DNA of 56,383 bases, the filler included, from Malassezia furfur (lineage: Eukaryota): assembly GCA_052055015.1 (NCBI GenBank). It is 3 parts of 3 records of this genome, joined end to end, with 100 filler letters (N's around TTAATTAATTAA, not from the genome) between each part and the next. Parts side by side here need not be neighbours in the genome. Positions count along the whole stretch, not along the records: positions 1 to 18,746 come from JBQJIT010000203.1; positions 18,847 to 37,586 come from JBQJIT010000204.1; positions 37,687 to 56,383 come from JBQJIT010000205.1. One strand, 5' to 3'. How positions within the stretch are numbered: position 1 is the stretch's first letter; each line of letters opens with the position of its first letter. The position numbers and the translations under genes are program-made. A model generated the notes under the pieces. It was not told where the DNA came from. It searched no databases and saw only the letters and a list, made by a program, of their open reading frames with translations. Below, piece after piece: positions 4,176 to 52,616 of this stretch.

Positions 4176-5605
4176 ATGGGGTGGAATTGCCAGCGGTGTG
4201 GGCAACTGTTGCAGCTTGATGCGAGCTTGGAACAGATCGACAGTGAAACCCTTGCAGAAGCGCGCAAGGTAGTAAGCGAAGCCTTCCCGCATGCCGCTCA
4301 GAGCACATCCCCCGGCGTGAACCACCCATGGGACGCACTCCACGCGCTGCCCGAGGTGCGCGACGCCGTCCTGGCACAAATGGACGCATACACACCGCCG
4401 CCCGAATCGGCCGCCTCAGCGAAGAGCGATGCATCACTTCCTCAGTACACCCTGTTTCACATTTTGTCGTCCGGCGCTTCATGCCCCTCGGACGTCGTGC
4501 AGCATCCGCTCTGCGAATCATGCACGCTCCAAGTCCTCGAGGACCGGTCAGCACAAATCGACCGGGCTCGAAAGGAGCGCGATACCCTCCAAACACTCGA
4601 GCGAGAGCTTGTGCGGCTGGCTTTGCTCGATGGCGACATGGAGATGTCTTCCGAAGACAAAGCGCGATGGCAACGAAAACAAAACGCCATCCGGCGCGAG
4701 GTCGACGAGGTATGCGTGCACACTCACCCAGATGAATGCCGAGATGCACCGGCTTGAGCAAGAACTTGCAGAATACGATACAGAGGAGGCGAAACTGCTC
4801 GTTGAGCTCCGCAACGCACGGCTAGAGGATGAGACGCTCGAGCACCAAGAGACCAACTTCTGGCGCAATTACCACGCGGCCACCGCCGAACTTGCACAGT
4901 GCGAGTCGGATAGGGCTAAGGCCGATGCACAGGTGCGCGATGACACCGAAATCTGCGCGCATCTCGAGCAGTCGGACGCATATACTGACGTCTTTTGCAT
5001 CGAACAAGACAGCCGAGGCATGGCTTCCATCAACGGCTTGCGTCTCGGCCGTCTCAGCTCGAGCCAGGCGTCGACGGCAGGCGATCAAGTGGACTGGCCA
5101 GAAATCAACGCCGCATGGGGCCAGACAGCGTTTCTTCTCACCGTCCTTGCACGCAAGCTCGCACTGCAATTCAGCGCCTATCGCATCCATCCCAAGGGCT
5201 CGTTTAGTAGCGTGGAGCGATTGGGGCCGGACAAGGCTACCTACGAACTGTATGGGACAAGCGAATGGCAGCTTGGACGTTTGCTTCACTCGCGCCGCTT
5301 CGACCATGCTATGGTAGGTATGCTTACATGCGTGCATGAACTCTGCGAAAAGGTGCAGGAACTCGACCCCGCTGCGACCTTACCCCACACGTACGTGACG
5401 CTCTTATTCAGCATCGAGAAAGATACCATCGGCGGCGCGAGCATACGACTGCAGTTTAACCAGCCAGAGGTCTGGACGCGCGCCACTCGATACCTCTTGT
5501 TCACGTACGTGCACACTCCACTCACGCAGCCTCCGCGCGCTCCTGTGCTGGACGCTAGAGAAGCCCCATGTGTATGTAGCCTTACCAAGCATCACGTGCC
5601 ACTAA
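4176..5605 (+). CDS. VPS30: Beclin-1/Atg6 (PI3K complex subunit)
   Basis: N-terminal CQRC, HPLCESC, coiled coil, SINGLRLGRL and VDWPEINAAWGQ. Introns 4710-4731 (22 nt), 5391-5411 (21 nt) and 5505-5529 (25 nt). Confidence 0.92.
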
Positions 5606-5668
5606 AGTCTTCCGCCAAGGAAGCGACGATCTTCGCACGTCGTCGGCCTTTGTAGCTGCTAAGCCACT

Positions 5669-6271
5669 ATGCCGATTACACAGAGCGGGCACCCAGGGCA
5701 GGACCACTCGCGTGACCCCTGCCCGTGGGTCATTTTGAACGACTTCGGTGGTGCGTTCGCCATGGGCTGCATTGGTGGCACAATTTGGCATGGCATCAAA
5801 GGCGCCCGCAACTCGCCGCGTGGCGAGCGGTTCCTCGGCTCCGTGTCGGCCATCAAGGCGCGCGCGCCTGTTCTCGGTGGTAACTTTGGTATCTGGGGTG
5901 GACTTTTCACCTCGTTCGACTGCAGTGTCAAGTCTATCCGCCAGAAGGAAGACCCATGGAACGCGATTATCGCCGGCTTCTTTACCGGCTCCACGCTCGC
6001 CATCCGTGGTGGTCCCAAGACTGCGGCAGGCGCCGGCGTCATGTGCGGTATTCTTCTCGGTGTCTTTGAGGGTGTGTATCCGACTTACGCTGCTGACCAC
6101 AGGTGTCGGTGTTCTTATGCAACGTCTGCTCGCCGAAAACAACAAGCCGGTACGTATTTCCTGTGGCTCACCATTAGATTGCCCCTATCATGTATGTGCT
6201 CTATGTGCTCACTGTGCAGCCCCGAAGCGCCCGTTGCGCCTGCGATTGCGCCAGCGACGTCTTCGTCCTGA
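5669..6271 (+). CDS. TIM17: Mitochondrial inner-membrane translocase Tim17
   Basis: [22 protein letters not shown]...[15 protein letters not shown]. Introns 6072-6102, 6150-6177 and 6192-6219, with a 14-nt exon at 6178-6191. Confidence 0.95.
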
Positions 6272-6345
6272 TTTGCATCTTCTTTGTTTTTGCGCAGCAG
6301 GACACCGGTGTAGTATTCGTGTCGTATCGTGCAAAAAAGTATTCC

Positions 6346-7390
6346 CTACGTCTGCAAGATGGCATACGCTGTCCATTGCGCTGCACGCAGTTGCAGTGCG
6401 CGCGTCTTGTGCGAAAAGATGGGCGTGGGCTCCCTGGTGGCGCTCTGTCCTGGTCGACCCAATTCCCCATGCTCATCTGTGGTCAGTGGCTGGAAGACGT
6501 ACTGCTTCCCATGGCGAATATGGTCCCACGCTCATCCAAAAAATAGGAGCTCGACGCGCCACAGGCGATGGCCACAACATCCGTGTCGAGCTCGACGAGC
6601 GTGGGAGATTCGACATGCCCCCCGGGCAGCCAGCCCCATATGTAGCAGTCGCCATCTTCTGTTTTCACGAGCGAATGTTGGTTTCCGCAGACGACTTGGT
6701 CGATCGTCGAAGGGAAGGCTTCGATTTGCGAGAAAAAATCGACGGGGTGTAGTTCGTTCGCGTCTAGTCCCAACGCAACATCCCCTAGCTGTCCAAAGCG
6801 GTTGTCCCCTGCAGCAAACACTTGATGGTGTGGGTGTGTTGCTAGGAACACAAAATGAGCCCCCCCGGCTGCGACACGGTGGCAGGCGACTTGATCACCT
6901 GTGTGTGCCTGGTGCAGAACATTTTCCCCCTTCTCCGACTTGCCATCCCACGCTATCCATTCATCGAGCGAAGAAAACAGGTATGGAACATGGTCGTCTG
7001 AGTAAGTCATCTGTACGAACGTGTAATAGCCGCAATACGTCCTCGAAGATCCATGGCAGCGTCGCGCCAAATCACGTCGCCTCCTTGCATCCGAAAAGCA
7101 GGCCCGTATTTAATGCGCCCATGTTCAAGACACGCTTCAAAACAGTCCTGTCCCATTACGCACTCACAATGAGGGGAGATTTTCGTTTGGGCAAGCGATC
7201 GTTCTGGGACGCAAGACTCGAAACCCAGCTGACATAGCTGGTCTCCTTCGCTGAACAGTACTTGCGAGCCGCTCACTGCGCGAATATGTTCGGCATTCCT
7301 GATCGTTACAGGTGTGCTCACGACCAGTTCGGTCATCGGACGACCCAGTTGCCCGTGTGCATTAGAACCCCAGCCGTACAACGTCGGCAT
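6346..7390 (-). CDS. RCC1/BLIP-II repeat protein (Ats1-like)
   Basis: RCC1 repeats GWGSNAHGQLG, AAGDNRFGQLG and GSN|EHGELG. The last is restored only by intron 6477-6502; the frame is joined by intron 6998-7020. Confidence 0.8.
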
Positions 7391-7445: not shown

Positions 7446-9007
7446 ATGCTTTCGCAACTTGGATCGGCCGCGCGCGCCCTGGGCAGGCGTGGTGCGCTTT
7501 CTGTTCGACTATATACCACACACAATGCCAAAGAGACATTTCTTGACACACTAGAGAAGCGGAATATGGTCCAGGCCACGACCTCGAGCGCTCTGCGCTC
7601 CCATATGGCTTCTACCAAGGACGGTGCATTCGTACCACGCACAGTGTACGCTGGTGTGGACCCCAGTGCAGCTAGTATACATGTGGGAAACTTGCTTCCC
7701 TTACTTGCTTTGCTTCACTGTGCACTTTATGGGCATACAGCGCTCGTTTTGGTACGTCATTTTGCTCACAAAGATTGGCGGAGGAACGGGGTCTATTGGT
7801 GATCCATCGGGCCGCTCAACCGAACGATCGGTCTTGGATGCATCACAGCTAGCCACAAATGTGGCTTCGATCCGGGGACAAATGTATCAATTCTTTCACA
7901 ATGCTGCAGCATATCTTCAACGCCGTGGTTTGCACACAAGTGAAGCGAATACGTATACGGCAGAGAACAGCAACAGTCCAGCAGGCGAACATCTCTTTTC
8001 TTCCGGACTCGACATCCGCATCGTCAACAACATTACATGGTTACAGCCTGTATCAATGATTGATTTTCTTTCCAACGTGGGGCGGCATGCGCGCGTCAAT
8101 GACATGATGGCACGCGACAGTGTCAAGAATCGCCTTGCACCTCCGGGTGATAGCAGTGCTAGTGCACAGGGACTCTCGTTCACGGAGTTCACTTACCAGC
8201 TGCTCCAGGCCTATGACTTCAGTGTGTTGCATCGCGAGCCGTATCATTGCTCCCTTCAGATTGGAGGCTCGGACCAAATGGGAAACATCAGTGCTGGAAT
8301 TGACCTAATTCGTCGACAGGAAGCAGCGAGAGGGACCGATATTCGAGAGGACCCTGCGTACGGTCTTACGCTGCCTCTTCTCACGACGGCGAATGGGACG
8401 AAGCTAGGCAAGTCTGCCGGAAATGCCGTCTGGATCAACCCCGAGATGCTTTCGGACATGGATTTTTACCAATACTTTTTGCGCAGCGCTGACGCGGACG
8501 TGGGCCGTTTCTTGCGCTCGTTGACCCTTCTGCCAATTGAACGCATCGATGAGGTCCTAGAGGTACATGAAAAGGACCGCTCAAAGAGACACGCCCAGGA
8601 GGTGCTTGCTGCGGAAATGACGGAGCTCGTTCGCGGAGAAGATGCTTTGCGTCGCGCCAGGATAGCCACTAAGGTCCTGTTTGGCACAAGCCTGGACGAG
8701 TTGCAGACCAAGGATGTCCTCTTTGCTTTTAAGGATGATCCCCGCCTTGTGAAGATCTCGCGTGATATGTTGGGAACCGAAGTGCTCAGTGTGGCTGCCC
8801 AGGCAGGACTGACACCATCCAAGAGTGCGTACTTCCTTTCTTAACGCAGGTGAAGCGCGGCGACTCCAGAAGGGAGGAGGCCTCTATTTGAACGGGAAAT
8901 CAATCGCATCCCCACAACAGATTCTGACGCGAGAGGATCTATTGGATGACGAATTTGTGGTACTGCGTGCAGGCAAACATAACCACAAGCTGGTAGTGAT
9001 GGTATAG
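7446..9007 (+). CDS. MSY1: Mitochondrial tyrosyl-tRNA synthetase
   Basis: Presequence, YAGVDPSAASIHVGN (HIGH), IGDPSGR, QIGGSDQMGNI, KLGKS (KMSKS) and an S4-like tail. Introns 7752-7773 and 8825-8849. Confidence 0.95.
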
Positions 9008-9220: not shown

Positions 9221-9815
9221 TCACAGTTTCGCTTTTGTATCCAGTACTTTTTGAACACAAGAAGCGAGTTCGTCCCCTTCCTCTTGTGTAAGCTCGTCAC
9301 GTCGTCCTAGCATGGTCAACGTTGCTGGGGCGTCCCATTTATTCAAAACCGATGACGAGTCGTTGGGCAATGGAGCAGGAACGACGTGAAAATGCACCTG
9401 TTTTAGATAACAACTAGGACGTACATGGTCCACCGCCTGTGCATATTCTTGGTTTGCTGCCACTTGAAGTCCCGTTATGTCGAAAGCTGAATCAGCACAT
9501 TGTGTGCACGCACCTTTCTCCATAGCCCGCGTGACTGCAACGACAGTTTGCATCAGTGCAGCACTCTGTTTAGAATCCAACTCCGAGATATTCTTTACGT
9601 GGTCCTTCGGGACGACGAGGATGTGGCCTGCGGTAAGAGAGGATTAACGCGCCTGCACGAATGGGCAAGATGTCTAAGAATGCGACGCAGTCATCGGTTT
9701 CGTACACAATGTGCGCCGGCTCCTTGCCTTCTATAATATTGCAGAATATACAGGATTCTTCGCGCTTCCGCTGGTCGTCTTGCCTCTTCAGCCTGGAGAG
9801 CAGATGCGAGGTCAT
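9221..9815 (-). CDS. HIT-family nucleotide hydrolase (Hint/Hnt1-like) with C-terminal PTS1 (-AKL)
   Basis: CIFCNII, AFLDILPIRAG|HILVVPK and DH|VHFHVVP (HxHxH triad). Introns 9628-9652 (GC-AG), 9487-9513 and 9398-9424. Confidence 0.9.
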
Positions 9816-10325: not shown

Positions 10326-10362
10326 GCATTATGGCAGCAGCACCTGCCGACAAACCTTGCAA

Positions 10363-11767
10363 CTATGGAACCCATTGAGGAGCGACGCCTACATACTGGC
10401 CCACGTCCGATACGGCACGCCGTCGCTTCACGGGCTGTGCATCCAAGCCCTCCAGGTTGCGCTCCCAATGTGCATTGCACTCCACCAGCTGATCGTGCCT
10501 GGTGCTCAGCGTGTTCAATTCTCCGTGCAGCGCATCGATGTGCGTCGAAAGTGCCTCAATCTTTTGGGCGCGCGCGTCTTCATCGGCCAGAGAGGCGATT
10601 TCGGCCAGCAAATCCGCCTGTTTGGAGCGCTGCGCGTAAGCCTCTTCATACCAGGCCACTCGATCCAGCTCCTCCTCCAAATGCGCAACATGCGCACGCA
10701 GCTGTGATTCGTTCTGCATCGCTGCTTGGAGCGTAGCATCGACCTGCGCCTTGGCCTCATGTTGCAAACTCCGCTCCTTGGCATGTAACGCGGCCAACAC
10801 TTGGCTGTGGACTGCATGGGTATGATTCAGCTGTGCCTCGAGCCATGCGCATCGGTCTTCCGCCATTTGCAGCTTGGACTGGTACCATGCTGCTTCGGCG
10901 GTTGCGTGTTCTTCCGTGAGACGCGCATAGGCAAGCCGGTCCTCGTCCAGCTCGACCAGGGCGGCTCTGTTCTCGAGTTCGTCTTCCAGCGTATTGCAGT
11001 GAGCTTGCAGATGACGAAGTTGGGTATGTGCCTCTTCGAGGTCCATAAGGAGCGCATCGCGCTGTGCCTGGGTAGTGGCCAGTTGCTCTGCGATCTCAGA
11101 ATGGTCGTCTGCGTGAGAGACAATTTGGACGAGGGGCGGTCGAGGGGAAAAGGGCCGCGAAGGTGTTTGACGTGCCAGGCTCCCAGCGGCCCGCGCAATG
11201 CATCGAAGATTGTTTTGGAGAAGCTCTTCGACTTCTCGCTGCTCCTGCACCTCGTCCAACTCAGCAGCAAGTTCAGCGCAACGAGCCGCGTGTGCCTCTG
11301 CTTCAGACTCGGCTTGGGCACGCTTCTGCTGTGCCTCCTCCAAAGCACGTTGTGTGACTTGCCCTTTGCTCATATATACCGCGCGCTCCTTGTAGCGAGC
11401 AATGGTCGTTTCTTGTTTCTCCAACTGTGCCCGGAGTTTGAGCTCGCGTTGCCGCCCGAGTTCTGGGTGAGAAGAACCACGTACGAATTTCTGTGCGGAG
11501 ATCCTCACGCTCATTTTGCAAGGCATGTTTCTCCTTGCGTAGGTCATCGAGCAAGGCTTCCGCCATGCGTGCAATCTCGTCCGCCGGCTTGTTCCTGGGA
11601 AGCGTCTGGGTATGATAGGGGATATTCTCGCGTTCCTCCAATGGCATGAGACTCGCACGAGGTGTACGAGACTGCGGAGTACGTATAGGGAGCCTTGAGT
11701 GGACATCCGATGCGCGCCGCGGCGTCTGCGGCACCGGAATCATCGGCCTCCCTGGCGTCCGCTCCAT
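10363..11767 (-). CDS. Long coiled-coil protein of unknown function
   Basis: Two ORFs joined by the 22-nt intron 11463-11484; TP-rich N-terminus followed by an E/Q/A/L heptad pattern. Confidence 0.7.
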
Positions 11768-21233: not shown

Positions 21234-22041
21234 TTACATGATGCCGCAGCACGAGTCTGCGTTAGGGTGCGTGTGCACGTACTTTGCTTGCGCGCCGACT
21301 TGTAAAACATCTTGCTCTGCTGGCTGAGCGAGCCACTCTTTTCCACGAGCTTGTCGAGGTCCTCGCCGCGCTGCAGGACCGAGTCGATCGTGTTGTGCTG
21401 CGTGAGCGGCGCGCACTTACCAGCACAATCTTGGTGTCGTCGAGCTCCTGCTGCACACGCAGGATCGTGTCCGCCTGGCGCGGGTCCTGGTAGCGCGCGA
21501 GGTACTCCTGCGCCTGCGGGAACTCGCTCGACTTGACGATGCCCTCGCCCTTCGACGGGATGTTGCCGCTGAGCGCGAGGTTGTTCGCCTGCGTCTGCCA
21601 GCTCGTCTTGGACACCTTGATCATGAACTCCTCCAGGAGCTTGTTCAGCAGCGAGAAGGCGACGCGCACCGGGTACTCGCTGTCCGAGATCAGCACACCG
21701 CTCACGCCGTCGACCGCCGGGCGCGCATGCACGTGCGCCGTGAACTGGTTCTCCGACACCGACTGGCGCTGCGTGGGCGAGGTGCGCTCAGCGACCGTCT
21801 GTGGGTTAGTGGGCGAGCGGCGCGGCGCGGCACGTACCTTGGCCATGAACGCCATCATGTCCTGCACCGTTCCGCGCTGGATCCACGAGAAGGAGTTGAG
21901 GTCCCACGCACTCAGCAGCGGCACGGCCGGCTGGCCGGGCTGCGTCGCAAAGATGAGCACCGAGACTGGGTTAGGCATGCGCGCGCGCGCTACGTACACA
22001 GCTTCCTGCGGTCAGTCGGTCGCGGCTCGCTCCACCTACAT
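21234..22041 (-). CDS. YKT6: R-SNARE Ykt6
   Basis: Longin domain ([29 protein letters not shown]), SNARE core with RGEDLDKLV and C-terminal CCGIM CAAX. Introns 22006-22039, 21966-21997, 21799-21837, 21398-21420 and 21257-21282. Confidence 0.95.
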
Positions 22042-31927: not shown

Positions 31928-32874
31928 CTAAGTGTCACGAAGATAGTCTACGAGCGCTCGCAGCTCTTCGAGCACCGTGAGCAAAATCACGGTCTGCGGT
32001 GCCAGGCGCATCCACGATGGGAACCAGCCGCGGAACAGGAAACGCGGGCCCTCCTCGCGGAGGGACTTGGCGAGCATGGGCATGCCGCCTTCGCTGCCGC
32101 GCGCGTTCATCAACCGCGCACGCACCACATCTGCGGGCGAGCAGATGGTCGTGGCCACTGTGCCCGCGAGGAGGGAGGAGCCGAGGTAGTGTGGCAGGCT
32201 ACCCGGGGTAAAGAGGCCCGAAGATCGTAACAGGTCCTTGAAGAAGTCGTATCTGGGTCAGTATACCACACACGCTGTGCCACGTACGATGCCAACTGAG
32301 AAGAGTTCATGAGCGCCGCGCGGACCATGTTGGGTGCGAGGCCACGGAATAGGGTATGCAGCCCCTCCTCTTTGGTAATGCGGATCAAACCATTGGCTGC
32401 GCCGCGATAGTTGAAACGCTGCTCGGGGGGGCGGTACATGTCGCCCGTCATGCGCACCAGGATCACGTCGGCCGGATTCCCTGCGAGTCCGCCCGCGGCA
32501 CCCGCGAACCCAGCGGTACTGATGGTGATCCACAACGGCGGTGGCCCCCGGCGGTTGGCGATAAAGCGCTCCTTGATCTTCTCGTAGGCAGCGAACCGCG
32601 TGAGACTGTACGTCATCTGCCGCAATACGCTGGCAGAGATGCCAATGTACAGCCCGCGCACACCCTCGTTCTGGACGGTGCTCCGCAGCAGGCGCAGCGT
32701 GGTGGTTTTTTGCGGTGCGTTTTGCATGCGTAGCTTGGTGAGATCGAGTGGGTGCGTGAAGAGCACGGCAATCGACGCCGACGCACCGCCGAGCCAGAAC
32801 GGATAACGTTTTGGCGTGACCTTGGCCTGCGGCGCTGCGTCGCGGCGCACGGGCTGCGCGCCGGTCGAAGCCAT
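31928..32874 (-). CDS. DIC1: Mitochondrial dicarboxylate carrier
   Basis: PFWLGG...THPLDLTK, RQMTYSLTRF, GNPADV, RAALMNSSQLAS|YD, CSPADVV. Intron 32253-32287. Confidence 0.92.
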
Positions 32875-32940: not shown

Positions 32941-35900
32941 ATGTACGTTGCATTCGGCACGCTGACCCCGCAGGCGAGTCGCCGTGCAATCCGATGAGAT
33001 TGCCAGCGTGACGCTGCACAAGGAGCGTCCGCTGCTGTTTCACCTCTATGTGTTCCCCTACCTCTTTCTGTACCCGCTGCTGGCGTGGGCGTACTACGTG
33101 GAGTACGACCGGTACATCCGCTCGGAAGAATGGACGTTTGTCTTCACCGTGCTCCTCACCTCGTCGCATGCTCTCAGCTTTCTCGTGACGCGCTGGAACG
33201 TGCGTGCGCGTGCGTGGATCACGAGTACGACGGTATGTGGTGCGCAACTGACGCCAGGCCAACTCGCTCGTCTCGGCGGACCGCGTGCAGATTGTGCCGC
33301 ACGCGCACAAGGGCGAGGGAGGTATGGTGCCGCTGCGCCGTGTGGTGCGCGAGGGCGAGCGCGATGAGTTCTCGTTCGTAAGCCAGGCGGACAAGTACGT
33401 GCTGGCGGTGCCCGACTCAAAGGCGCCTGTCACGTCGATCACCGCTTCGCCCGACATCCGCGAGCCGACGTTCCGCCGCCTGCTGTATCCTGCCGACGTC
33501 CACCCGAAGCTGTCGCACTTTTTGCAGCGCCCAGGCCTCGACACCGAAGGTGTCGCGAACGCGCGCAAGCTGTACGGCAACAACGTGCTCGAAATCCCCG
33601 TGCCGCGGTTCTGGGACCTGTTCTTTGAGCACGCGGTGGCGCCCTTCTTTGTGTTCCAAGTGTTTTGTGTGGGCCTGTGGATGCTCGACGAGTACTGGTA
33701 TTCGTCGCTCTTCTCGCTGTTCGCGCTGGTGGCATTCGAGTGCACGTTGGTGTTCCAGCGACAGCGCACGCTGAACGAGTTCCGTACCATGTCGATCCAG
33801 CCGTTCACCGTCCACGTGTACCGCAACCAAAAGTGGGTGGAGACCTCCACCAACGACCTGCTGCCCGGCGACGTGATGAGCATCGTGCGCACCAAGCAAG
33901 ACTCGGCGATGCCCTGCGACGTGCTGCTCCTCTCGGGTTCGGCGATTGTCAACGAGGCCATGCTTTCGGGTGAGAGCACGCCACTGCTCAAGGAGAGCAT
34001 CGCGCAGCGCAACGGCAACGACTTCCTCGATGACCAGGACGCAGACCGTCTGCACTGCCTCTTTGGTGGCACCAAGGCGCTCCAAGTGACCGCCGGGCAG
34101 GGCGTTCCCGGCGTAACGTCGCCGCCAGATGCGGGTGCGATCGGCGTGGTGCTGCGCACGGGCTTTGGCACGACGCAGGGCCGCCTGGTACGCCTGATGG
34201 TCTTCACCAACGAGAACCAGGTCACGGCGAACAACTGGGAGAGCTTTGTGTTTATTGCGTTTTTGCTGGTGTTTGCGATCGCGGCGAGTGCCTACGTGTG
34301 GGTGCACGGCCTGGAGATGGGCCGCCCCAAGGGCAAGCTGCTGCTGCACTGTGTACTGATCATTACCTCGGTGGTCCCCGCGGAGCTGCCGATGGAGCTG
34401 TCCATGGCGGTGAACGCATCGTTGGCGGCGCTCGGCAAGTTTGCCATCTTCTGCACGGAGCCGTTCCGTATCCCGTACGCGGGTCGGGTGGACGTGTGCT
34501 GCTTTGACAAGACGGGCACCATCACCGGCGAGGACCTCGAGGTGCAGGGCGTGGTGGGCTCGAGCGACCCCAAGTCGGAGGCGCTGGAGCCTGTGTCGCA
34601 CGCCACGCCCGAGACCACGCTGGTGCTTGCGGCGGCGCACGCGCTGGTGATTGTCGATGACGAGGTGGTCGGCGACCCGATGGAGAAGCGCACCGTCGAG
34701 GCGATCGGCTGGGAGGTGAAGCGCGGCGACCACGTCGTGCCGACGGAGCGCGCTGCAGCGCCGAGTCAGCACTCGGTGCACATCCGCGTGCGCTTCCACT
34801 TTTCCTCCGCGCTGAAGCGCATGTCGACCGTTGCGCAGGTCTCGCTGAGCCACGGCAAGAAGACGACGATGCTCGCCAGCGTCAAGGGCGCGCCTGAAAC
34901 GCTGCGCCCCATGTTTGCCGAGCTCCCGCCGAACTACGACACGCTCTACCGCGACTACACGCGCCGCGGGTCGCGCGTGATTGCGCTCGGCTACAAGTAT
35001 ATGGACCACCTCGACGCCCAAGGCCTCCGCAACGTGCGCCGCGAGGACGTCGAGTCGAAGCTGCACTTTGCCGGCTTCCTCGTGCTGCACTGCCCGCTGA
35101 AGCCCGATGCGGTCGAGTCGCTGCGCCAGCTGAACGACTCGGCACACCGTTGCGTGATGATCACGGGCGACAATGCACTCACCGCCGTGCACATCGCCGA
35201 GGAGGTCGAGATCGTCACGCGCGACGCCATCATCCTGGACCGCCGCGAGGGCGGCGAGGAGCACGAGCTGGTGTGGCACAAGACGAACGACGAGGTGGTG
35301 CGCCACCAGGACGTGGACGCGCCGCTGCACCGTCACCTGTTCGACGAGTACGACGTTGTGGTGACGGGTGTGGCGCTGCGCCAGTTCGAGACGCGCCCCG
35401 ACTCGCTCAAGGAGCTCGTGGAAAACACGTCGGTGTACGCGCGCGTGTCGCCGACGCAGAAGGAGCTCGTGCTGAGCACGCTCAAGTCGCTCAAGTACAT
35501 CACGCTCATGGCCGGCGACGGCACCAACGACGTCGGCGCCCTCAAGATGGCCAACATCGGCGTGGCGCTCCTCGACGGCTCGCCCGAGGATCTGAAGAAG
35601 ATTGCTCAGCACCAGATGCTCGAGCGCCAAAAGAAGGTGTACGAGTCGCAGCTGTCGCTCATGGCCAAGTGGGGCCAGCCGCCGCCGCCCGTGCCGCCGG
35701 CGCTCAAGGAGGCTTATCCGGACCTGGAGCAGGCGCGCGAAAAGGCCGTGCAGCTGCTGCAGTCGCAGCGCCGCACGAACCCTGTGGCGAAGTTCGACAT
35801 TGCCTCGATCACGCAGAGCATGAGCGCGATGGACGAGGAGGAGGACGGCCCGCCGCAGATCCGCCTCGGCGACGCGAGTGTCGCGGCGCCGTTCACGAGC

Positions 35901-37686: not shown

Positions 37687-39926
37687 CGCGCTGCACCTGC
37701 TGCCGCACGCCGTGCCGCGCAGGGCCGACGTCGCACCGCGTCTCGCTGCCGTACGCGCCGAAACGGTCGAGCGGCGGGTGCAAACGCCAAACAAGCGCGC
37801 CGTCCTCGGTACGGTCGGGAGCAAACGTGAGCGACAGCGAGAGCATCGTGTCGACGAGCGCGTGCATCGCGTGCTGGGCCTCGGCACTCGTCTGCGGCGT
37901 GGGCTGTGTAAGGGAAGGAGGTACGTACGCGCTTCAAATCGGGGCTCAGGATCTTGACGAGCGCGGGGCCAAGCTCGGTGGCGATCGCCGTGCGCGAGTA
38001 GAACGGCTGCGTGTTGGGCGAGAGGTGCGCGCGCAGCGTCGCGACCAGCTCGTGCGTCTCGGTGAGGCGCACATGGTTGTCGTAGTCCGTGCGCGGCAGC
38101 TGCTCCGGCAGCGGGTTCGCCAGATTCGCAAAGAGCAGGTGCCACGGCACAAACGCCCAGGGCAAAAACGCAAACAGCTCGTACGCGGGTCCATTCCCGC
38201 CGCCGCCATACGCACGGTGCGTCATGCTCTGCGCAAAGTGCAGCCAGTCGTGCGCAGACGCATACCGCTGCCACCCCTGGTCGGGCAGGCGCAGGCGCAG
38301 GTAGTGCTCAAAGCACCCCTGCGCCAGCCGGTCGTACTCGCCATACCCAGTCATCTCGTGCACGAGCGCACGCATGCGGTCCGCAGGTGTCGCCTTGGTC
38401 TGGCGCGAGCGCCGCGCGTGGAAGGCCGCAGGGGTCGCATCCACCTGGCAAAAGAGCTGCGCAAACAGCCGCTGCTGCGACACGACGCTGTCCTTGATGC
38501 CGATCGTCGACTGCGTGATGGCGTCGTCCGTGACGGGGGCGTCGCGCGTATGCAGCATCTCGAGCGCGTGCAGGCACGCCCGCAAATCGCCGTGCGTCAG
38601 CTCACACAACAGCGACAGACTGCGCGTGTCGGCCCGCAGCTGCTCCGCCGCACAGATCTGCGACAGACGCCGCGCAATCGCAGGCGTCGGCGGGCGGTGG
38701 AAGCGCAGAATCTTGCTCCACGGACGCAGGGGACGCAGCGCAGGCGCATACAAGTCGTTGCACACACATACAATCGGACGCAGCACGGGCGGTGCGCCTT
38801 TTTTGCGGCGCACGCCGGGCGCGTCCGAAGCGCGCCGCTTGCCGTCGCCCTTGCCGCGCTCCACAAGCCGCACGAGCGCACGCACAAAGCCCGCCGTACC
38901 GAGTGCATCACCGCCGCTGCCGCCCGTCGCGCCGTCGATCTCGTCAATGACCACGAGCGTCGGACGGCCCCCACCCCGTAGGCTATCGGACTCGAGCGCG
39001 ACGCGGACGCGTTGCTCGACGTCGCCGGCAGTGCGTGCGTCCGAGGCATTCAGCTCATAGACGCGGTAGCCAGCCTGTGCCGCCACGACGTGTGCCAGTG
39101 TCGTCTTGCCCAGCCCCGGCGGGCCAGAAATCAGCAGCACACGCTCGGCGGGGCGCTGGTACGGGTCGGGCGGCGGCCCGGCCTCTTCGGCATCGGCATT
39201 GAGGGCGCGCTTGCGTGGTGCAGGCACCGCACGGCCAAACACGCACGCATCCCACTCTTTTACCCAGCGCAGCGCGTCGCGATGCACGCGGTCGTCGCCG
39301 AGCAGTTCGGTGAATTTGCGCGGTCGGTACTTTTCGGCCCACATCACCTCGGACGCGGGGCGCGCACGCACGCGCGGCGGTGCGGGCGGGGGGTTGTGCA
39401 CGCGCTCCATCAGCCGGCCGATCGGTTCGCCAAGCAGCTCGTGCGTTGCTGTGCGCATGGGCGCGGGCGGCTGGGTCAGGATGCGACGTACCGTCCATCC
39501 ACGCGTGCGTCGACGGCGTGGGATCGTGATAGGGCGCCCATCGAGCGTCGTGGCATATGCGGGCTCGGCAGGGATGTACTTGGGTATGTGGGATGCGTCG
39601 GGGGCCGCGCGCGGTGCCGCAGGGGTATGTTGGGTCGCTGCATAGAGCTGAAAGGTGGGAGCAGTGGGCGCCGTGCGCGGCGCCGGCGGCGCTGGTGGTG
39701 CCGTCTCAAATGCCATGTGCGTGTCCTTGCGCTCGTCGGCAGCCGGTGCTGGCGTCGTGTCGTCGACGTCCATCGCGTTGTCCGCCTCCTCGTCGAGGCC
39801 AAGGAACAGCACGTCCTGAGGGTCGTGCGCCGGCTCATCGTCAAATGCACGCGGCCGTGCCCACTCGCCCGCGATCTCCTCCTCGGCCGCAAGTAGGGCC
39901 TCGAGGTCATCTGCATCGTCCTCCAT
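37687..39926 (-). CDS. CTF18: Ctf18 alternative clamp-loader subunit (3' end truncated at spacer)
   Basis: WAEKYRPRKFTELLG, WVKEWDACVF, GPPGLGKTT, ELNASD, DEIDG, RPIVCVCNDLY. Introns 39471-39491 and 37904-37928. Confidence 0.93.
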
Positions 39927-40012: not shown

Positions 40013-41066
40013 ATGCTTCGCACCGCGCGCCTCGTTTCGCGTGCTTCGGTGGGGATGACGAAACGCGCGGCGAGCGCGGCAGCAAGCGCAAGCGCAAGCA
40101 GTACGCCGAAGCGCGCACGCGCCACGCCCAAATCAGACGCGGATGGCGATGCGCCGCGCTCGCCCGCGGCGCCGACGGGCGTCGACCACGTCGCGCCCGA
40201 CTGGGTGCCGCGCAACAAAGAGCTACCCAAGGGCGCGCTGTCGTTTGAGCGCCCGCAGGAGGGCGATGTGCGCATGGTGATTTGGAACATTACGTCGCTC
40301 AAGTCGTCCGATGCCAAGGGTCTCATGCGCTACATCAAGGCCGAGGACCCCGACGTGCTGATCCTGAGTGAGACCAAGGTACGTGGGCGCGCTGACGCAG
40401 GTGAACGCGCCGCCGGCGCACGCAGGTCTCGACGCAACATACGCGCACCAGTACTGGGGCATCGGCGAGAAGAAGGGCTACGCCGGCGTGGCGGTCCTGT
40501 CGAAAATCAAACCGAGCGAGGTGCACTATGGCCTGCCCGGCTTCCATGACCCCAGCTCGCGCGCGCGCATGATCACCGTCGTGTTCCCGCACACGGTCGT
40601 GGTGGGCACGTACGCGGTGAATGCCGGCGACCAGCTCAAGACACTCGACAACAAGATGCGCTGGAACGACGCGCTCGAGAAGCACCTGGAGACGTACGCG
40701 GACCGCGACCTGATCTGGTGCGGCGACCTGAACGTCGTGTGGGACGACCGTGACCTCGCGGGTGCGTCGAAGAAGTGGAACAAGTCGGCCGGCTACACCG
40801 AGGCCGAGTGCGACGCACACCGCCGCGTGCTGGGCGCGACGCAGATGCAGGACGCCTGGCGCGTCCTGCACCCCGACGCAGTTGGCGAGTACACGTACTA
40901 CGGGTGGCGCGGCAACTGCCGCGCACGCGGCGCGGGCTGGCGCATCGACACGTTCATCGCGAATGCGCGCGCGCTGCCGCGCATCACCGCGTGCGAGATC
41001 CGGCACGCGATCTACGGCGCGAGCGACCACCTGCCGGTGGTAGCCGATGTGCGGGGACCGCTATGA
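40013..41066 (+). CDS. ExoIII/Xth-family AP endonuclease (APE1-like, no GRF zinc-finger tail)
   Basis: WNITSL, LSETK, KKGYAGVA, CGDLNV, YTYY, GWRIDTF, GASDHLPV. Intron 40379-40400. Confidence 0.92.
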
Positions 41067-41075
41067 CGTAGCTAT

Positions 41076-43047: not shown

Positions 43048-43598
43048 ATGGTGCAAACGACGTGGGCCGCGTATGTCGCTGCGGCGCTCCTCGCGCTCTC
43101 TGGCACTGTTCACGCACAGTCGTCGTCGTCTGTGCCGTCGTCCATGGCACCGGTGTCGAAGCCGACCGCGTCCTCGAACGGCGTTTCCGGCTGCGTCCAG
43201 TTCGGCGACTGGTACGTTGGGGAACACCCTACTGACTCTTCAGCACTACGGGCGCCAACACGTACAAGACCGAGACGCAGTACTCGCCTGTCGTCTCGCC
43301 TGCATCGCACAGCGTGCCGGACATCACCGGCTCAGCTGCTAGCAGCTCTTACGTCAACTCACTCGCCGCCGCCGGCGCCAGCGAAGCGTACGCGTCCAGC
43401 CCCTTTCAAGGCTCGACAACCGCCGCGCCCGCACCCACTACGGTTGTGTTTGATTCAGTAACCAAGTCGGGCGGACAGGAAGTCACCACGTCCGTCGTGA
43501 ACTCTGACAGCACCAACGGCGCAAGCATGCGCCAGGCCGCTCCCCTCTTTGTTGTCGCGGCCGTGGCAGTTGTCGGCGGCGGTGCTTTGGTCTTGTAG
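43048..43598 (+). CDS. Small secreted Ser/Thr-rich, probably GPI-anchored surface protein
   Basis: Signal peptide MVQTTWAAYVAAALLALSGTVHA, CVQFGDC across intron 43212-43243, omega-like STNGA followed by a hydrophobic tail. Confidence 0.8.
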
Positions 43599-43843
43599 TA
43601 GTAGTACTGGGATTTATCTGCGTCCATGCTGGAGTGCGTGCTATAAGCGTACACACGCGCCGGACCACGCCACACCGCGCCACGCCGGCTGCAACGCATG
43701 CATCATGCATCGAGCCGGCCTTTGATTGAAAGACACGCGTCATGCCAAAAGCACCAAACACGCACTTCGAGACCCAATCCTACTACCTTTTGAGAGGCCC
43801 AAACGGGACTTGAAAGCTAGCAACCTACAACACGCGGATGCAC

Positions 43844-44782: not shown

Positions 44783-44993
44783 TGTTAGTTTTGTTGTTTG
44801 GTTAGACGGTTTGTAGTAGTTTTGTGGCCCTTCCTAGCACCTCGCTCCGCGGGTTGAAAGGAAAATTTAAAGGGATGGAGAGACGTAGCGGCCGCCGCGG
44901 CGGAACCGTTTTCTTCGCGCAACTATAATTGACACGTGACCTTTCCTTCGCGCCACGTGGCTACGCACAGACGACGACATCGTATGCCAGGGC

Positions 44994-46868: not shown

Positions 46869-46876
46869 CGCCCAGC

Positions 46877-47857
46877 ATGTCTTCCTTTAAGGTGCGCCTG
46901 CGTGTACCCCCCAACGGCGGCTCTAAGAGTCCGTCAGAGGGAACCGAGGCGGCAACAGCACCCGCGGAACTCCCGTCCGAGGCCACGAGCGAGCGCAGCA
47001 CGCCCGTGGCCCAGGAGCCCGGCACACCCACGCATGCTGACACAAGCCGCCAGCCAAGCGTCGACTCCGCGGTCGAGATGCAGCGCGCGTCGAGCAACGA
47101 TCCACCACAGAGCGACACGTCGCAGACACAGTCACCCGCACCCGATTCCAAGCCTGCCAAGAAGGCGGCCAAGTCACGACGCTCGATGATGCCCAATTCT
47201 ATCTCTGCAGTTGCTGCATCGCTGACACTCGAAGAGCTCGACGCCCTACCCTCCGCAAAGCGGCGCAAGAGTCTTAAGACGCGTGGTGCACCAGGACCCG
47301 GCCGCGGTTGGCGTAAGGGACTGTCCAAGGGCCAAAAGCCCGTCTACCGGCTGCCGGACATGGACCTGAGCACCGCCGATGTCCGCCACGACCCAGACAA
47401 GATGCCGGTGCAGGCCACCACGCCGTCGTCGTTTGCAGGCTCGAGCTCATCCAGTCGCAAAGCCAAGAGCAGCTCGTCTGCGAGCAAGAGCATCGAGAGC
47501 GTCCCGCTGGTTTCGGCGACAATCCGCGTCTTGCCCAACTCGGCTGATGCCGTATTCAAGTACCCTCCCATGCCCAGCCTCAAGGATGCGCCCTCGCTGC
47601 TCCCGCTTCCCCGCATACCCAACGTCATTCCGACTATTGTACCATTGCAAAAGTCGGACCTGAAGCCGCGGCATTGGCAGCATGGCCAGCGCGAGATCCT
47701 CAACATTGCCGGGCGCTCGTGGCGCGCCCCAGCGTGGCTTACCGAGGAAAAGGCAGCATCGTCGGCTACGGACGTGAATGAACCAGACGACAGTAATGAG
47801 GCTATGGCAGATACCTCGATCGCGCCTTCGGAGGCCGACGCGGATGGCAAGGCATAA
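46877..47857 (+). CDS. INO80 complex subunit Ies4-like
   Basis: MSSFKVRLRV start, basic GPGRGWRKG, C-terminal PRHWQHGQREILNIAGRSWRAPAW. Confidence 0.6.
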   Translation: MSSFKVRLRVPPNGGSKSPSEGTEAATAPAELPSEATSERSTPVAQEPGTPTHADTSRQPSVDSAVEMQRASSNDPPQSDTSQTQSPAPDSKPAKKAAKSRRSMMPNSISAVAASLTLEELDALPSAKRRKSLKTRGAPGPGRGWRKGLSKGQKPVYRLPDMDLSTADVRHDPDKMPVQATTPSSFAGSSSSSRKAKSSSSASKSIESVPLVSATIRVLPNSADAVFKYPPMPSLKDAPSLLPLPRIPNVIPTIVPLQKSDLKPRHWQHGQREILNIAGRSWRAPAWLTEEKAASSATDVNEPDDSNEAMADTSIAPSEADADGKA

Positions 47858-47858
47858 T

Positions 47859-48679
47859 TTAGACAGACTCGGGCAGATCGAACCTGAATGAGTAGACGTC
47901 ACGTACTTGTCGGGCTGGTTGAGAATCACGAACTGCTCCTTGAACATCAGCTCGCGGTTCACCTTGTAGCCGTTTTTGAGAGTGCGCGAACGCAGCGCCA
48001 TCGCGAGCTCGATCGACTTCTTCAACGTGCCCTCCGAACCTTCGTAGCCAGGCCCGTCGGCAATCACGTCAATTAGCTTATGCTGCAGCGCCTCCTTTGC
48101 ACCAAACCGGTGGCCCTCAAGCACAATCTTGCGGATGACCGTAGGCTCGTTGGTCACAGTGCGAAGGACCGCCATCATACCATTCGGCACCGGAGCGCCA
48201 AACTCGATTTCATTCAGGCAGAGATAACCCTTCTTGCCGTTCTGCACACGGTAGTCGTGCGCAGCAGCCAATGTGAAGCCACCAGCAAATGCATGACCAC
48301 CAACCGACGCTACAGTGGGAATAGGAAGCGAGAGAAGCTCCTTGAACATGACGTTGAGGTAGTCGTCGAAGAAGGTGGGATCGGCAATGGCATTCATCAG
48401 GTCCAGGCCGTTGGAGAAAATCTTGTTGCTCGGAAGCGCCGTAGTTACCAGCGCGGATCCTTCACCGACATTACCCTCTTTGACCCACTGGGCCCACATC
48501 TTCTGCACCTGTTGGCACGCGGGCACAATTCCCTCCCGAATAAACTCGTGCGTGAGACGGTTGTCGGGAGTCTGCTCGCCAAGCAGGTACAGCACAAAGA
48601 TGCGTGTCTGCGGATCAAAGTCCAGGCGGACCAAAGGAATGTTGTCCTTCTTCGTAGCAAACGTCGTCGACTCTACCAT
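47859..48679 (-). CDS. Enoyl-CoA hydratase/delta3-delta2 isomerase (crotonase fold)
   Basis: PDNRLT, KIFSNGLDL, LPIPTVASVGGHAFAGG, LCLNEIEFG. Terminal intron 47884-47906 gives DKFDLPESV*. Confidence 0.88.
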
Positions 48680-48850
48680 GGTGGCTTCCGTTGGCTTTAC
48701 CCCGGATTCACGCCGGCCAGACTGGAGAATAGCCGGGCCACGTGGCCTTTGACATCTCACAGGCGAGGAGGCGCTGAAGGCGTGGGTTCTATTGGTGGGC
48801 GAATCGGGGATTCATTTGCGTGCTCCTAGGCCATCTATAGATTGTATGGA

Positions 48851-50028
48851 TTACTCAGTGAGACCTTCAATGTCTGGTAACCAGAACGCGACTTGCCCGC
48901 TCGCGGTGCAAAATTCTGTGTCAGATATGGCGACGTACGAGCGCATTTTGGATTGAAAGCAACGACACGCGATGGACCCTCGTGACCGTTAAGGAGACCA
49001 CTGGGGCGCAGCGTTGTTGTTGTTTCAGGCGCCGTCTCAGGGAGAGCCCAGATACATAGTTGTCCAGTCGATGAGCCGGAGAGGACCATACGGCCGTCAG
49101 GTGTCCAGCACGCCTCTTGCCCACTAATGCCCGCCTGCGGCACCATCCCCACGCCTCTTCCAGATGCTTGCTCAAGGCCGACATGACCCACGAGCCGGTA
49201 GAGTAGTTTGCCTGAGAAGGAGTCAACAATATAGTGCACGTCACCCGCAGTGCCCACCAAAACAAACTGGCCGGACTGGTTGAAGCTCAGCGAAGTGATC
49301 ACTGGAATCCTCGGTGGCATTGAAATCTGGGAGAGCGCCGCCGTGTCATCAATCGTGATCATCAAAAAAGGGTCGCAATCAAATTTCCGCACGTCGTATA
49401 GCAGAACGGCATTGCGCTCATTCAATGCAATGGCGAACACAGCGCCGGTAGGGTCGTACGTCACAACCGGGTGTCCGCGTACGCGCAATTGTCCTTGAGC
49501 CTCGGGGCTACGCAGGTCCCAAAACCGCACCGCATCGTCCACAGCCCCAGAGAGGAAGGTGTCGTCGACCGGCGACATTTCCAGAGAGACAACCCTACGT
49601 CAGTCCAGATGCATACCGTCTCTTGTGCCCTCGGAAATACTGTAGATACTTGTTGTCGTGCAAAGAATGGTAGCGGATCGTGTCTGGGTGAGATTCGCAC
49701 GTACCATCTTCTTTGGTCGACGCGTAAACGATCGCAGATGCACGGTGGGTGAACCGCGCCAGGTGCACACCGTATTTCTTGCTATAGAGCGACTTGATGT
49801 GCCTGTGTTAGTGCGCGCAACCTACCGCCCTGTGCGGCTGTTGTATAGCTGAATGGTCTCGTCGTTGGACGCCGTGACTAACAACTCGCCACGATCATCA
49901 TAGTCGACGCTCGTAACTTGGCAGTCATGCTGTACAAAGTCGTGGAACACCTTCGCAGGGCGAAAGCTGCTCACAAGCTCGAGAGAGAGCGGCAACGCGC
50001 CGTTCGGCACGTCGCGAGCTTCGCTCAT
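48851..50028 (-). CDS. SWD2: WD40 subunit Swd2/WDR82 (COMPASS and CPF)
   Basis: [40 protein letters not shown]. Introns 49803-49825, 49595-49616 and 48916-48938. Confidence 0.93.
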
Positions 50029-50057
50029 CGTCGCGCGAGATTCTCGAAATTGAGGAA

Positions 50058-51198
50058 TTATGGAGGGCTACTAAAAAATTGGGCCATGGCCGTCTCGAAT
50101 GGTGCATGGTGCAGTGCATAGTCAGGCACGCGCTCGCCAAACGCGCTCGCGGCCTTCCTCCGTGTTGAGTTGCGGCGCTGGTTTGTCGTGGTAGTGGGGT
50201 ATACTGTGCCATCCGCACGTGGGAGATTGTCCTGTGCAGCAAGCTCGGCGAGAGAGGGACCCATGCGCTGGTGTAAGAGGGGTTTGGGACGCATAGGGGA
50301 CGCGCGCTCTCCGAGTGCTTTTGTGCTTTCCTTGACCACACGCGGTACTTGGGTGGGGGTATGTTGGGAGAGAGGAGTGGGCGCGCGAGTCGGTCGTTTG
50401 ACGTAGTCGGTATCTGGGTCGTGTTTTGCTTCGGACGGTAAAAGTTTGTTGTAGCGAGCAAGGGTAGCTTTGGCATCTGCGAGTAGTTCGGCATGCAAGG
50501 CGGTAAGATGCGCGGTGAGTTCGTTCTCGCTCCGGGGCGGTTTGTCGTGCTGGGCATCCAACGACGCCAACATCGGTACAAGGAGCGCGATATCCACCTG
50601 CTCCAAACTGTCGATGCGCGCAAGCAGCTTTTGTCGATCACGAACCAAGTTCTCTTTCTCTTGTTTGCGCAGTTTCTTCTCGGCTCGTTCGTGTCGAAGA
50701 TGGCGTGCCAAGTAGACTTCGTCAGAAGTGTCATACTGTGTGAATTCCGGCAACGTACCACCGGCGTCGAAACGCCACGCGTCTTTCCGAGACTTGCAGG
50801 TGCATCCGCAGCATGGAACTCGGGTGTTTCCACCTCTTTCATCGCCGCACATTCGCGGGCCTTCTCAGGGTCGGAAAGGTATGCAAGGATCGCTTGAACG
50901 CGTGCAGAGGCATCAGGGATTTGTGCGCTTGGTCCATCAGACCCGGCTGCATCGTCCAAAACCAGGACCGTGTTTCCAGGTAGAAAAGGATTGTCTGCAT
51001 GAGCATTAAATGCATACCCTGTGACATGCGGGGAGGTGGATTAAGCAGCATCTCGATGTCTCCTTGCCCTCCCGCCAGGAGACGCGACTCGATCTGTGAC
51101 CGACGTAGAGACCGAGCGCGTTTGGGTGGTATGGCGGCGCTTGGGGCCCGCGACGGCGCGCTTTGCGGGGTCGCGCGAGGCGACGGTTCCCCGGGCAT
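50058..51198 (-). CDS. PEHE/Sas4-like domain protein (putative MYST acetyltransferase complex subunit)
   Basis: VETPEF...DTSDEVYLARHLRHERAEKKLRKQEKE. Three reading frames joined by introns 50995-51017 and 50736-50758. Confidence 0.65.
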
Positions 51199-51281
51199 CA
51201 AATTGGGAGTGCGCAATTTTGCGGCCCTGCGCAAATCGGGGCGAATTGTGTCAGCAATCCGTCCCACACTTGGCACACGAC

Positions 51282-52322
51282 ATGGTCATTTGCAAGCGAC
51301 GCGGTTGCGGTGCAGACTTCAACCCTGATGATCCGGCCCAGGGTGGGGAGTGTAAGTACCACCCTGGTGCACCCGTCTTCCACGAGGGTTTGAAATCCTG
51401 GTCTTGCTGCAAGGAGACCAACAAGCCAGTAATGGAATTCGACCAATTCTTGGCCCTCCCGGGTTGTGCCACCGCGCCCACGCACACAACCGAGAAGCAG
51501 GAGCCAGCACCGACGCAGGTTCCTGGCGGAAAGGTAAAAGACACCTCTGCGGATGTCAAACAGACCACGGATGCTCTCAATGATGTCCAGCTTAATGAAA
51601 GTGCACCGCCCAAGCCAGCCGCCAAGACGCCGACAGTGCCCGGGCGCGCTCCCATCGCACCTTCGGCAGCCCCCAAGCCGAGTGCGCCAAAAGAGCCCGA
51701 GCCGGAGGCGCAGGACCCGCTCTCTATGCAGTCTGTACCCTCGGGTGCGAAATGCCACCGCCGCGCCTGCAACTACACTGCTGAGACCGGAATTGCCCAG
51801 CGCGATCGCTCGAAAGAAGAGTGCAGGTACCACCCTGGTACGCCCATTTTCCACGAAGGGTCAAAAGGCTACACATGCTGCAAGCGACGTGTCCTCGACT
51901 TTGACGATTTCCTCCAAATTGCCCCGTGCACGAAAGCGGAGCACGGTCATCTGTTCGTGCCCCCCACGCCGGCGAGTGGCGAGCTGGTGCAATGCCGTTT
52001 GGACCACTATGAAACACCAGACGATGTGCGTATTACCGTGTATGCCAAGGCAGTGGATGCTGCCAAGTCCTTGGTAGACATCCAGACGGACCAGGTCCGC
52101 CTGGATCTTCATCTCGATCCGGTGGGGTCCATCACCCATGCGCGCCGGTTCGAGAAGACGCTACTGCCCTATTCCGAAGTGGACCCTGAAAAGTCTTCGT
52201 ATACCATCGGCAAGATGAAGCTGGACCTCGTTCTGGTCAAGCGGTCTCCGGGCCAAAGTTGGCCGGCGTTGGAACGTGGCGATCCTGTGCATGGGTACGG
52301 CGTTACCTTCGGCAATAAGTAG
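51282..52322 (+). CDS. CHORD-CHORD-CS Hsp90 co-chaperone (Chp1/CHORDC1-like)
   Basis: CKRRGCG...CKYHPGAPVFHEGLKSWSCC, a second CHORD CRYHPGTPIFHEGSKGYTCC, and a CS domain. Confidence 0.93.
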   Translation: MVICKRRGCGADFNPDDPAQGGECKYHPGAPVFHEGLKSWSCCKETNKPVMEFDQFLALPGCATAPTHTTEKQEPAPTQVPGGKVKDTSADVKQTTDALNDVQLNESAPPKPAAKTPTVPGRAPIAPSAAPKPSAPKEPEPEAQDPLSMQSVPSGAKCHRRACNYTAETGIAQRDRSKEECRYHPGTPIFHEGSKGYTCCKRRVLDFDDFLQIAPCTKAEHGHLFVPPTPASGELVQCRLDHYETPDDVRITVYAKAVDAAKSLVDIQTDQVRLDLHLDPVGSITHARRFEKTLLPYSEVDPEKSSYTIGKMKLDLVLVKRSPGQSWPALERGDPVHGYGVTFGNK

Positions 52323-52356
52323 CTAAAATACAAAAATAAAGAAACCGTGTGCATGG

Positions 52357-52616
52357 TTATTGTGTTTCTTGGGTAGGAGGAGGACCACTCGCGCTGGATT
52401 CGGTGCCGTGCACGAGTTCTGTGTGAGTCAACAACACGCACCTTGAATGGACGCTTCGAGCGCGTCAATACGATCCGCCATTTCGTTCACTGCATTAGTT
52501 TGTCACATACTTCGGTTCTCAACCTGCTTGTTGCGCTCGTTGAGCCGCGTCTCGACTTGTGTAAGCAGCGCGTCGACCCAATTCCCCAACTGCTGCGGTG
52601 TGGTAATCTGGCTCAT
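52357..52616 (-). CDS. HSBP1: Heat shock factor binding protein 1 (71 aa), not in ORF track
   Basis: Spliced MSQITTPQQLGNWVDALLTQVETRLNERNKQVENR|MNEMADRIDALEASIQ|ELVHG... using introns 52490-52510 and 52419-52441. Confidence 0.85.

Follow-up and report, generated by a model that had tools for sequence, protein, structure and literature searches.

The genes of a 56,383-nucleotide (nt) stretch of a Malassezia furfur-like genome (assembly GCA_052055015.1; the whole stretch analysed is called the window) are interrupted by spliceosomal introns of 21-39 nt, and introns in a 550-kb sample of this genome meet a hard length floor at 21 nt. We consider it probable that these are ordinary major-class (U2-type) introns, shrunk genome-wide down to the steric floor of the spliceosome. 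A preliminary description of this DNA had presented the short introns as a window-wide system. They are real, but the feature is genome-wide and genus-wide rather than specific to the window, and the shortness itself has been published before. The window joins three contigs across N gaps with a short TTAA-repeat linker (18747-18846 and 37587-37686); the assembly from which it comes holds 13.7 Mb in 1,856 contigs. The genome is a hybrid with two subgenomes and, as expected of a hybrid, contains a second copy of the window region at 85% identity. Over its aligned part, the second AP-endonuclease exon is 100% identical to a protein of M. furfur. For comparison with other species we used four syntenic loci of other Malassezia taken from metagenomes (L171-L174), among which the AP endonuclease of L173 is 97% identical to a M. 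sympodialis protein.

Length floor and intron anatomy

We sampled introns in 550 kb (4% of the assembly), from long contigs and with strong motifs only. From 2,640 strong donors followed by a branch motif and AG, we obtained 1, 42, 44 and 41 candidates at 20, 21, 22 and 23 nt, versus 0-12 candidates at 20-23 nt for two sets of control donors. Candidate lengths fall to the background near 30 nt, with little excess above 40 nt, and the length peak has a P of about 1e-116 versus background. The floor has two parts. When 658 GTAYGT donors were scanned for a branch A without requiring an AG, it was found at position 15 in 2 cases and at position 16 in 42 (background 2.3), and among 185 cases the first AG followed the branch A at 5 nt in 111, at 4 nt in 1 and at 3 nt in 3. 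As the branch A stands at least at position 16 and is followed by at least 5 nt, the minimum is 16 + 5 = 21 nt. The shortest introns open with a donor of 6 nt, in most cases GTACGT or GTATGT; six free spacer nucleotides separate it from CTRAY, and a single base separates CTRAY from YAG. A tail of 5 nt leaves no space for a pyrimidine tract.

The reading frame gives the same picture. A codon model was applied to those candidates, about half of the total, whose coding flanks are confident, and it detected the matching frame shift in 83/87 candidates of 22-28 nt whose length is not a multiple of three, versus 0/7 such candidates of 20 nt or less. These seven belong to the 25 motif candidates below 21 nt in the sample, nine of which have confident flanks; five of the nine are internal sites within longer introns that have the correct frame. 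The 149 frame-validated introns of 21-40 nt have a median of 24 nt, with most at 21-25, and the modal length is below 30 nt, as in tiny-intron lineages. At sites orthologous to those of the window (fewer than ten in each locus), introns measure 22-25 nt in L173 and 28-35 nt in L171, so that, judging from these alignments, the floor may vary by species within the genus.

A wall could also be selective or mutational in origin, if spacer deletions eroded the donor and branch motifs. At the floor, however, six spacer bases remain unconstrained (69% identity between subgenomes), so information is not limiting; the fall from 42 to 2 across one nucleotide is a step, and closer donors or AGs are skipped in favor of outer ones. 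We therefore regard a nonsteric wall as unlikely, even if Stentor splices introns of 15-16 nt with all its small nuclear RNAs (snRNAs), so that spliceosomes can evidently go lower (PMC9505925; here and below, published work is cited as represented in the accessible portions of each source), and even if the longer L171 introns make the floor seem variable.

The splice signals are strong. At donor position +4, the 281 candidates from eight preset donors have C in 68%, T in 21%, G in 7% and A in 4%, and a count unbiased for the donor gave 72 GTACGT versus 5 GTAAGT. The branch motif, RCT(R/C)AY with a purine at -4 in 80% of the 281, is complementary to the GUAGUA of U2. A 6-nt donor and such a branch motif are not of the degenerate myxozoan or Stentor type, with the qualification that our scans select for motifs. 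Introns in multiples of three are not depleted (104/281), and a Paramecium-like purge of stop-free introns of this class was not significant (stops in 25/58 vs. 30/91, P 0.23). Minor-class (U12-type) introns have an ATATCC or GTATCC donor and a TCCTTAAC branch. Among the 30 commonest donor hexamers none was of U12 type; the genes for U11 and U12 were not searched for.

Within the window, a list built by hand from motif scans and reading holds 36 introns. Their lengths run from 21 to 39 nt, with a median of 25, and 16 fall at 21-23 nt. The list reproduces the numbers of the preliminary description. Thirty-five of the 36 are GT-AG and one is GC-AG, and in 29 the length is not a multiple of three. 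The five intervals cited in the preliminary description are all GT...AG; they measure 22, 22, 22, 22 and 21 nt, and each has a branch motif of the CTRAY/CTCAC type.

Judged by comparison and reading frame, the window segments are real U2-type introns. Between 3.6 and 11.5 kb, the second subgenome has introns at 15/15 matching sites, 14 of equal length. The splice signals (donor 81/90, branch motif 71/75, YAG 42/45 identical between homoeologs) are conserved to a degree like that of the exon flanks (638/720), whereas the rest of the intron is drifting (spacer 114/165, tail 14/26). A DNA search found no second-subgenome copy of 37700-56383, and intron support there rests on other species. Excision of 40379-40400 creates a junction that is crossed gap-free by 63/71 aligned AP-endonuclease homologs, the other eight being truncated, gapped or mis-modelled. 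The intron-poor L172 is gap-free at eight of the nine window junctions tested, the ninth (39471-39491) being weakly supported. In other relatives, the site is occupied by an intron of another length; opposite the in-frame 21-nt intron at 49684-49704, for instance, these measure 35 and 23 nt. Moreover, excising five introns results in a 217-amino-acid (aa) longin SNARE (YKT6-like), and excising four results in a 362-aa WD40 protein (SWD2-like).

These comparisons bear on whether the frame changes are merely sequencing or assembly indels, or the segments retained coding sequence. The assembly is fragmented, one homoeologous VPS30 copy has a 1-nt frameshift, some introns of 21 nt keep the frame and contain no stop, and neither the class divisible by three nor stop codons show the bias described above for Paramecium. 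But the same segments occur in both subgenomes with conserved signals and divergent spacers, relatives precisely lack them or have other lengths at the same site, and the genome-wide peak stands far above background, which makes an artifact very improbable. The warning that such introns would be mis-modelled was justified, although not universally: the 17 residues after the 22-nt intron are dropped in three of the six named public AP-endonuclease models checked (two of M. furfur, one of M. yamatoensis) and present in the other three. For annotation, the minimum intron length must be set to 21 nt or below, and some public models are already wrong.

Spliceosome components and a possible mechanism

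The preliminary description had proposed an adapted spliceosome and suggested looking for reduced U1 small nuclear ribonucleoprotein (snRNP) or U2AF components and altered snRNAs. Our survey does not bear out such a reduction, or an alteration of U2 or U6, and the core is apparently conventional. The U2, U4, U5 and U6 snRNA genes are all present above the Rfam cut-offs, U4 and U5 in two copies each; U2 has the standard branch-pairing region GUAGUA, and U6 carries the ACAGAGA and AGC elements and a single additional base in its internal loop. U1-70K (RRM intact) and U1-C each occur in two homoeologous copies, and U2AF65 (three RRMs), SF1, Slu7 and METTL16 are present. U2 and SF1 were recovered only once each. 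RED had no candidate in this genome, in a search that lacked a positive control. A reduced or U1-less spliceosome of the Cyanidioschyzon type, having lost U1 snRNP proteins and early factors, is not supported. A compensating U6 change for the C at donor +4 was ruled out, the ACAGAGA being standard, as was loss of METTL16 or Slu7, both being present.

We did not find the U1 snRNA gene itself, either with Rfam RF00003 (41 of 173 candidates scored) or with patterns combining its 5' end with loops or with a TATA box in this genome; patterns allowing any base at the position that pairs with donor +4 found no U1 either. None of the 88 exact ACTTACCT sites was U1-like by eye, and cmscan on 29 of them (9/21 and 20/67) gave no U1, while snRNA promoter patterns returned only U2, U4 and U5. 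Three candidates were rejected: the sole paired one (L085/L086) is a splice donor in a ubiquitin-conjugating gene that lies on the opposite strand, L100 has no Rfam match and a fold z of -0.67, and L166 is the 3' end of a coding gene. The gene may lie in a gap of this assembly, which is split into 1,856 contigs and in which U2 and SF1 each turned up a single time.

The missing gene raises the question of a changed U1 step acting on real introns, through an altered U1 5' end (e.g., a G opposite +4) or a bypass of U1 to U6. A G at that place would pair with the dominant C or U of the donors, the ACTTACCT and the promoter searches both gave no U1, and there are precedents in Entamoeba, where U1 coevolved with the donor (bioRxiv 2022.06.08.495308), and in Cyanidioschyzon, which lost U1. 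However, Thecamonas prefers C at +4 and has a standard U1 (bioRxiv 2022.06.08.495308), U1-70K and U1-C are retained in duplicate, the patterns open at the pairing position were also empty, and in so gappy an assembly U1 may simply have been missed. We consider this explanation doubtful, if somewhat less so than a nonsteric wall. The same doubt attaches to a broader version, in which RED would be lost and U1 changed or bypassed, letting donor and branch engage 15 nt apart and setting a species-varying ruler at position 16.

If these are instead ordinary U2-type introns at a steric floor, recognition would proceed by intron definition. U1 would pair with +1 to +6 while SF1 sits on 11-17, side by side and without overlap; U2 would then take the place of SF1, and U6 would take over the donor. 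In the human B complex, donor and branch are separated by ~52 nt, consisting of two helices, of 17 and 14 nt, together with 21 extended nt (PMC6692369). This span cannot fit 15 nt, so that a joint seating of U1 and U2 as in humans is questionable, and it is plausible that the two are unable to sit together in this way on such introns. U2 and U6 might use minimal helices only, with a linker of 4-5 nt, in an assembly that is compacted or sequential; relative to the human B complex, with its long helices for U6/5' splice site and U2/branch and its gap of ~15 nm, these elements would be shortened or passed in sequence. The 5-nt tail could represent the minimum for YAG docking in step two without a pyrimidine tract, a catalytic-core minimum shared with Stentor. 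As for the step that sets the floor, we infer that the limit at position 16 arises during assembly or activation, earlier than catalysis, and is probably not catalytic because Stentor branches at 10-11 with the same 5-nt tail.

Several points weigh against the steric reading. With the U1 snRNA gene not found and RED without a candidate, the core may be incomplete, and the component survey covered about ten proteins and RNAs, scored by presence. Support for the introns consists of comparison and frame, with branch points taken from motifs. Finally, the 550 kb are a small part of the 13.7 Mb and were scanned with strong motifs, so introns below 21 nt with weak motifs could be missed.

Some features of the splicing genes deserve mention in their own right. 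The U1-70K and U1-C genes (L070, L093) themselves hold candidate introns of 23-32 nt, four in the former and two in the latter. At L006 1501-1605 and L117 1501-1633, a C-to-U change in U6 is matched by a G-to-A change in U4 (pairing by eye). A YAACGGCC element is located ~75-115 nt upstream of all seven snRNA gene copies (L001, L006, L007, L117, L118, L155, L156); combined with a TATA box, the pattern matches only U2, U4 and U5 in the whole assembly, and it resembles a promoter element for Malassezia snRNA genes. Behind a TATA box near position 1500, L128 and L152 contain short open reading frames (ORFs) rich in cysteine, which form a homoeologous pair and by eye resemble metallothioneins.

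Introns of the window gene by gene

In the part of the window covered by the second subgenome, an ATP synthase delta gene (minus strand; Pfam) has introns of 34 nt (3680..3713) and 37 nt (3868..3904), both kept in the homoeolog. VPS30/Atg6 (plus strand; Pfam), with a spliced ORF of 453 aa, has three, of 22 nt (4710..4731; branch A at 17, tail 5), 21 nt (5391..5411; in frame and stop-free, branch A at 16, tail 5) and 25 nt (5505..5529; kept in the homoeolog). The 21-nt intron is identical in the two subgenomes, unlike other introns, and is possibly subject to regulated retention. In the homoeologous VPS30 copy (L049), a 1-nt deletion opposite window ~4397 shifts the frame, reflecting either a decaying hybrid copy or an assembly error. 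The Tim17-family gene (plus strand; Pfam) has introns of 31 nt (6072..6102), 28 nt (6150..6177) and again 28 nt (6192..6219), all kept in the homoeolog; between the last two stands a micro-exon of 14 nt (6178-6191). An RCC1-repeat gene (minus strand; Pfam) has one kept intron of 26 nt (6477..6502). The Tyr/Trp-tRNA synthetase gene (plus strand), previously designated MSY1, has a 22-nt intron (7752..7773) flanked by Pfam profile positions 7-43 before and 40-291 after it, in different frames, and a 25-nt intron (8825..8849) kept in the homoeolog. In the HIT-domain gene (minus strand; Pfam), removal of 27 nt (9398..9424) joins the histidine triad; a second 27-nt intron (9487..9513) is kept in the homoeolog at 26 nt, and the GC-AG intron of 25 nt (9628..9652) has a GT donor in the homoeologous copy. 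A 22-nt intron (11463..11484, minus strand), also kept, belongs to a gene without Pfam match.

The YKT6-like longin R-SNARE gene (minus strand; Pfam) contains introns of 26 nt (21257..21282), 23 nt (21398..21420), 39 nt (21799..21837), 32 nt (21966..21997) and 34 nt (22006..22039), whose joint removal gives the 217-aa ORF; the last splits the start codon and is followed by a second micro-exon, of 8 nt (21998-22005). A 35-nt intron (32253..32287, minus strand) in what is presumably a mitochondrial-carrier-like gene was called from motif and coding score only. The P-type ATPase gene (plus strand; Pfam) has a weak, motif-only call of 31 nt at its 5' end (32943..32973) and a 25-nt intron (33233..33257) from motif reading, as is the 25-nt intron (37904..37928) of the RFC1/CTF18-like AAA gene (minus strand; Pfam). 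The CTF18-like gene also has an in-frame 21-nt candidate (39471..39491, minus strand; branch A at 16, tail 5), for which the spliced form outscores the retained one by 7-10 points in 4/4 orthologs, which is weak support. Together with 32943-32973 and 47884-47906, it is among the least secure calls in the window.

Comparison with the other Malassezia loci places the remaining introns. Differential intron presence is heavy in the genus, L172 being without introns at nearly all window intron sites. The 22-nt intron of the AP endonuclease gene (40379..40400, plus strand) is absent in L171-L173 and measures 36 nt at the same site in L174. A 32-nt intron (43212..43243, plus strand) in a small gene without Pfam match corresponds to 25 nt in L173 and 49 nt in L174. 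For the enoyl-CoA hydratase/isomerase gene (minus strand; Pfam), a 23-nt intron (47884..47906) was called from motif and frame, with no ortholog aligned; L172 (5233-7296) and L173 (5488-7083) have tandem duplicates of this gene, which lies at 47.9-48.7 kb in the window. In the SWD2-like WD40 gene (minus strand; SWD2 in the preliminary description), the introns of 23 nt (48916..48938) and 22 nt (49595..49616) are absent in L171-L173, while the in-frame 21-nt intron (49684..49704; branch A at 16, tail 5) and a 23-nt intron (49803..49825) are absent in L172 and measure 35 and 30 nt in L171 and 23 and 22 nt in L173, respectively. The SAS4-domain gene (minus strand; Pfam) has two introns of 23 nt, one (50736..50758) absent in L172 and one (50995..51017) of 28 nt in L171. 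Finally, a gene for a 71-aa coiled-coil protein (minus strand), which we take to be HSBP1-like, has a 23-nt intron (52419..52441) absent in L172 and a 21-nt intron with an in-frame stop (52490..52510; branch A at 16, tail 5), absent in L172 and of 31 nt in L171 and 22 nt in L173. At the opposite end of the window, 3-686 is an ornithine decarboxylase antizyme ORF (Pfam ODC_AZ), any programmed frameshift site of which would be upstream of the window.

Comparison with known systems

Within the genus, the curated annotation of M. sympodialis counts 5,350 introns with a mean of 30 bp, down from 65 bp before curation, and 5,271 (99%) have RNA-seq support (Zhu et al. 2017, PMC5389616). A review terms Malassezia introns very short (PMC7426719), and the annotation of M. 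restricta allowed introns down to 15-20 nt (PMC6473144). This is the same phenomenon in the same genus, and the orthologous introns of 22-25 nt come from L173, the locus with the AP endonuclease 97% identical to that of M. sympodialis. In their accessible portions, these sources give a mean or a remark only, with no floor, branch position or spliceosome survey, and those of PMC8476143, PMC12506658, PMC3560662, PMC5654937 and PMC2396436 contain nothing on nuclear intron length or Malassezia U1. In the literature searched, which excluded subscription papers and bioRxiv supplements, we found nothing on a 21-nt floor, the branch geometry or the spliceosome of Malassezia; the floor may be visible in the length curve of Fig. 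S8 of PMC5389616. Thus, the shortness is already published, but the two-part floor, sharp to one nucleotide, appears to be unpublished.

The human spliceosome needs about 50 nt between donor and branch, and it is an open question how tiny-intron organisms splice with 10-15 nt. Known examples come from ciliates, nucleomorphs and parasites, whereas Malassezia is a yeast that can be cultured and for which gene-editing tools exist. With a near-standard spliceosome, strong signals and a one-nucleotide-sharp floor, the limiting step should be findable by a simple length series. The splicing field may have overlooked the genus, since the tiny-intron papers that we found do not name it.

The window system joins the tiny-intron lineages already known. 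Its introns fall in the size range of Paramecium, as had been claimed: the fitild table gives Paramecium a mode of 23.4 and a median of 24.6 nt (a mean of 25 nt is given elsewhere), versus main modes of 42-62 nt in most fungi, 36 in M. globosa and 26 in Rozella (PMC6157073). Both Paramecium and Malassezia have thousands of GT-AG introns, but here the genome is GC-rich, the 6-nt donor is strong and CTRAY explicit, and in our small sample there is no significant bias in multiples of three or stops. Rozella allomycis, too, belongs to the fungal lineage, but it is a parasite that branched early, whereas Malassezia is a basidiomycete that can be cultured. Host association, a compact genome and introns of 22-27 nt are shared with myxobolids and Dicyema (PMC13644364), Trichomonas (PMC12316389) and microsporidia. 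Myxozoans likewise retain U2 and U2AF (PMC13644364), but their signals are reduced to GTa/AG, in contrast to the full signals in thousands of introns in Malassezia, and the type B introns of Trichomonas (23-25 nt) number 24, with a fixed fused branch/3' motif (PMC12316389). Stentor coeruleus has the same 5-nt tail past the branch A, and its snRNAs and core proteins are conserved (PMC9505925). It differs in that its introns are of near-fixed length, 15-16 nt, with a weak branch consensus, the branch A at 10-11 and a standard U1 RNA found, whereas in Malassezia the branch A stands at 16 or beyond and lengths run from the floor in a tail to ~40 nt.

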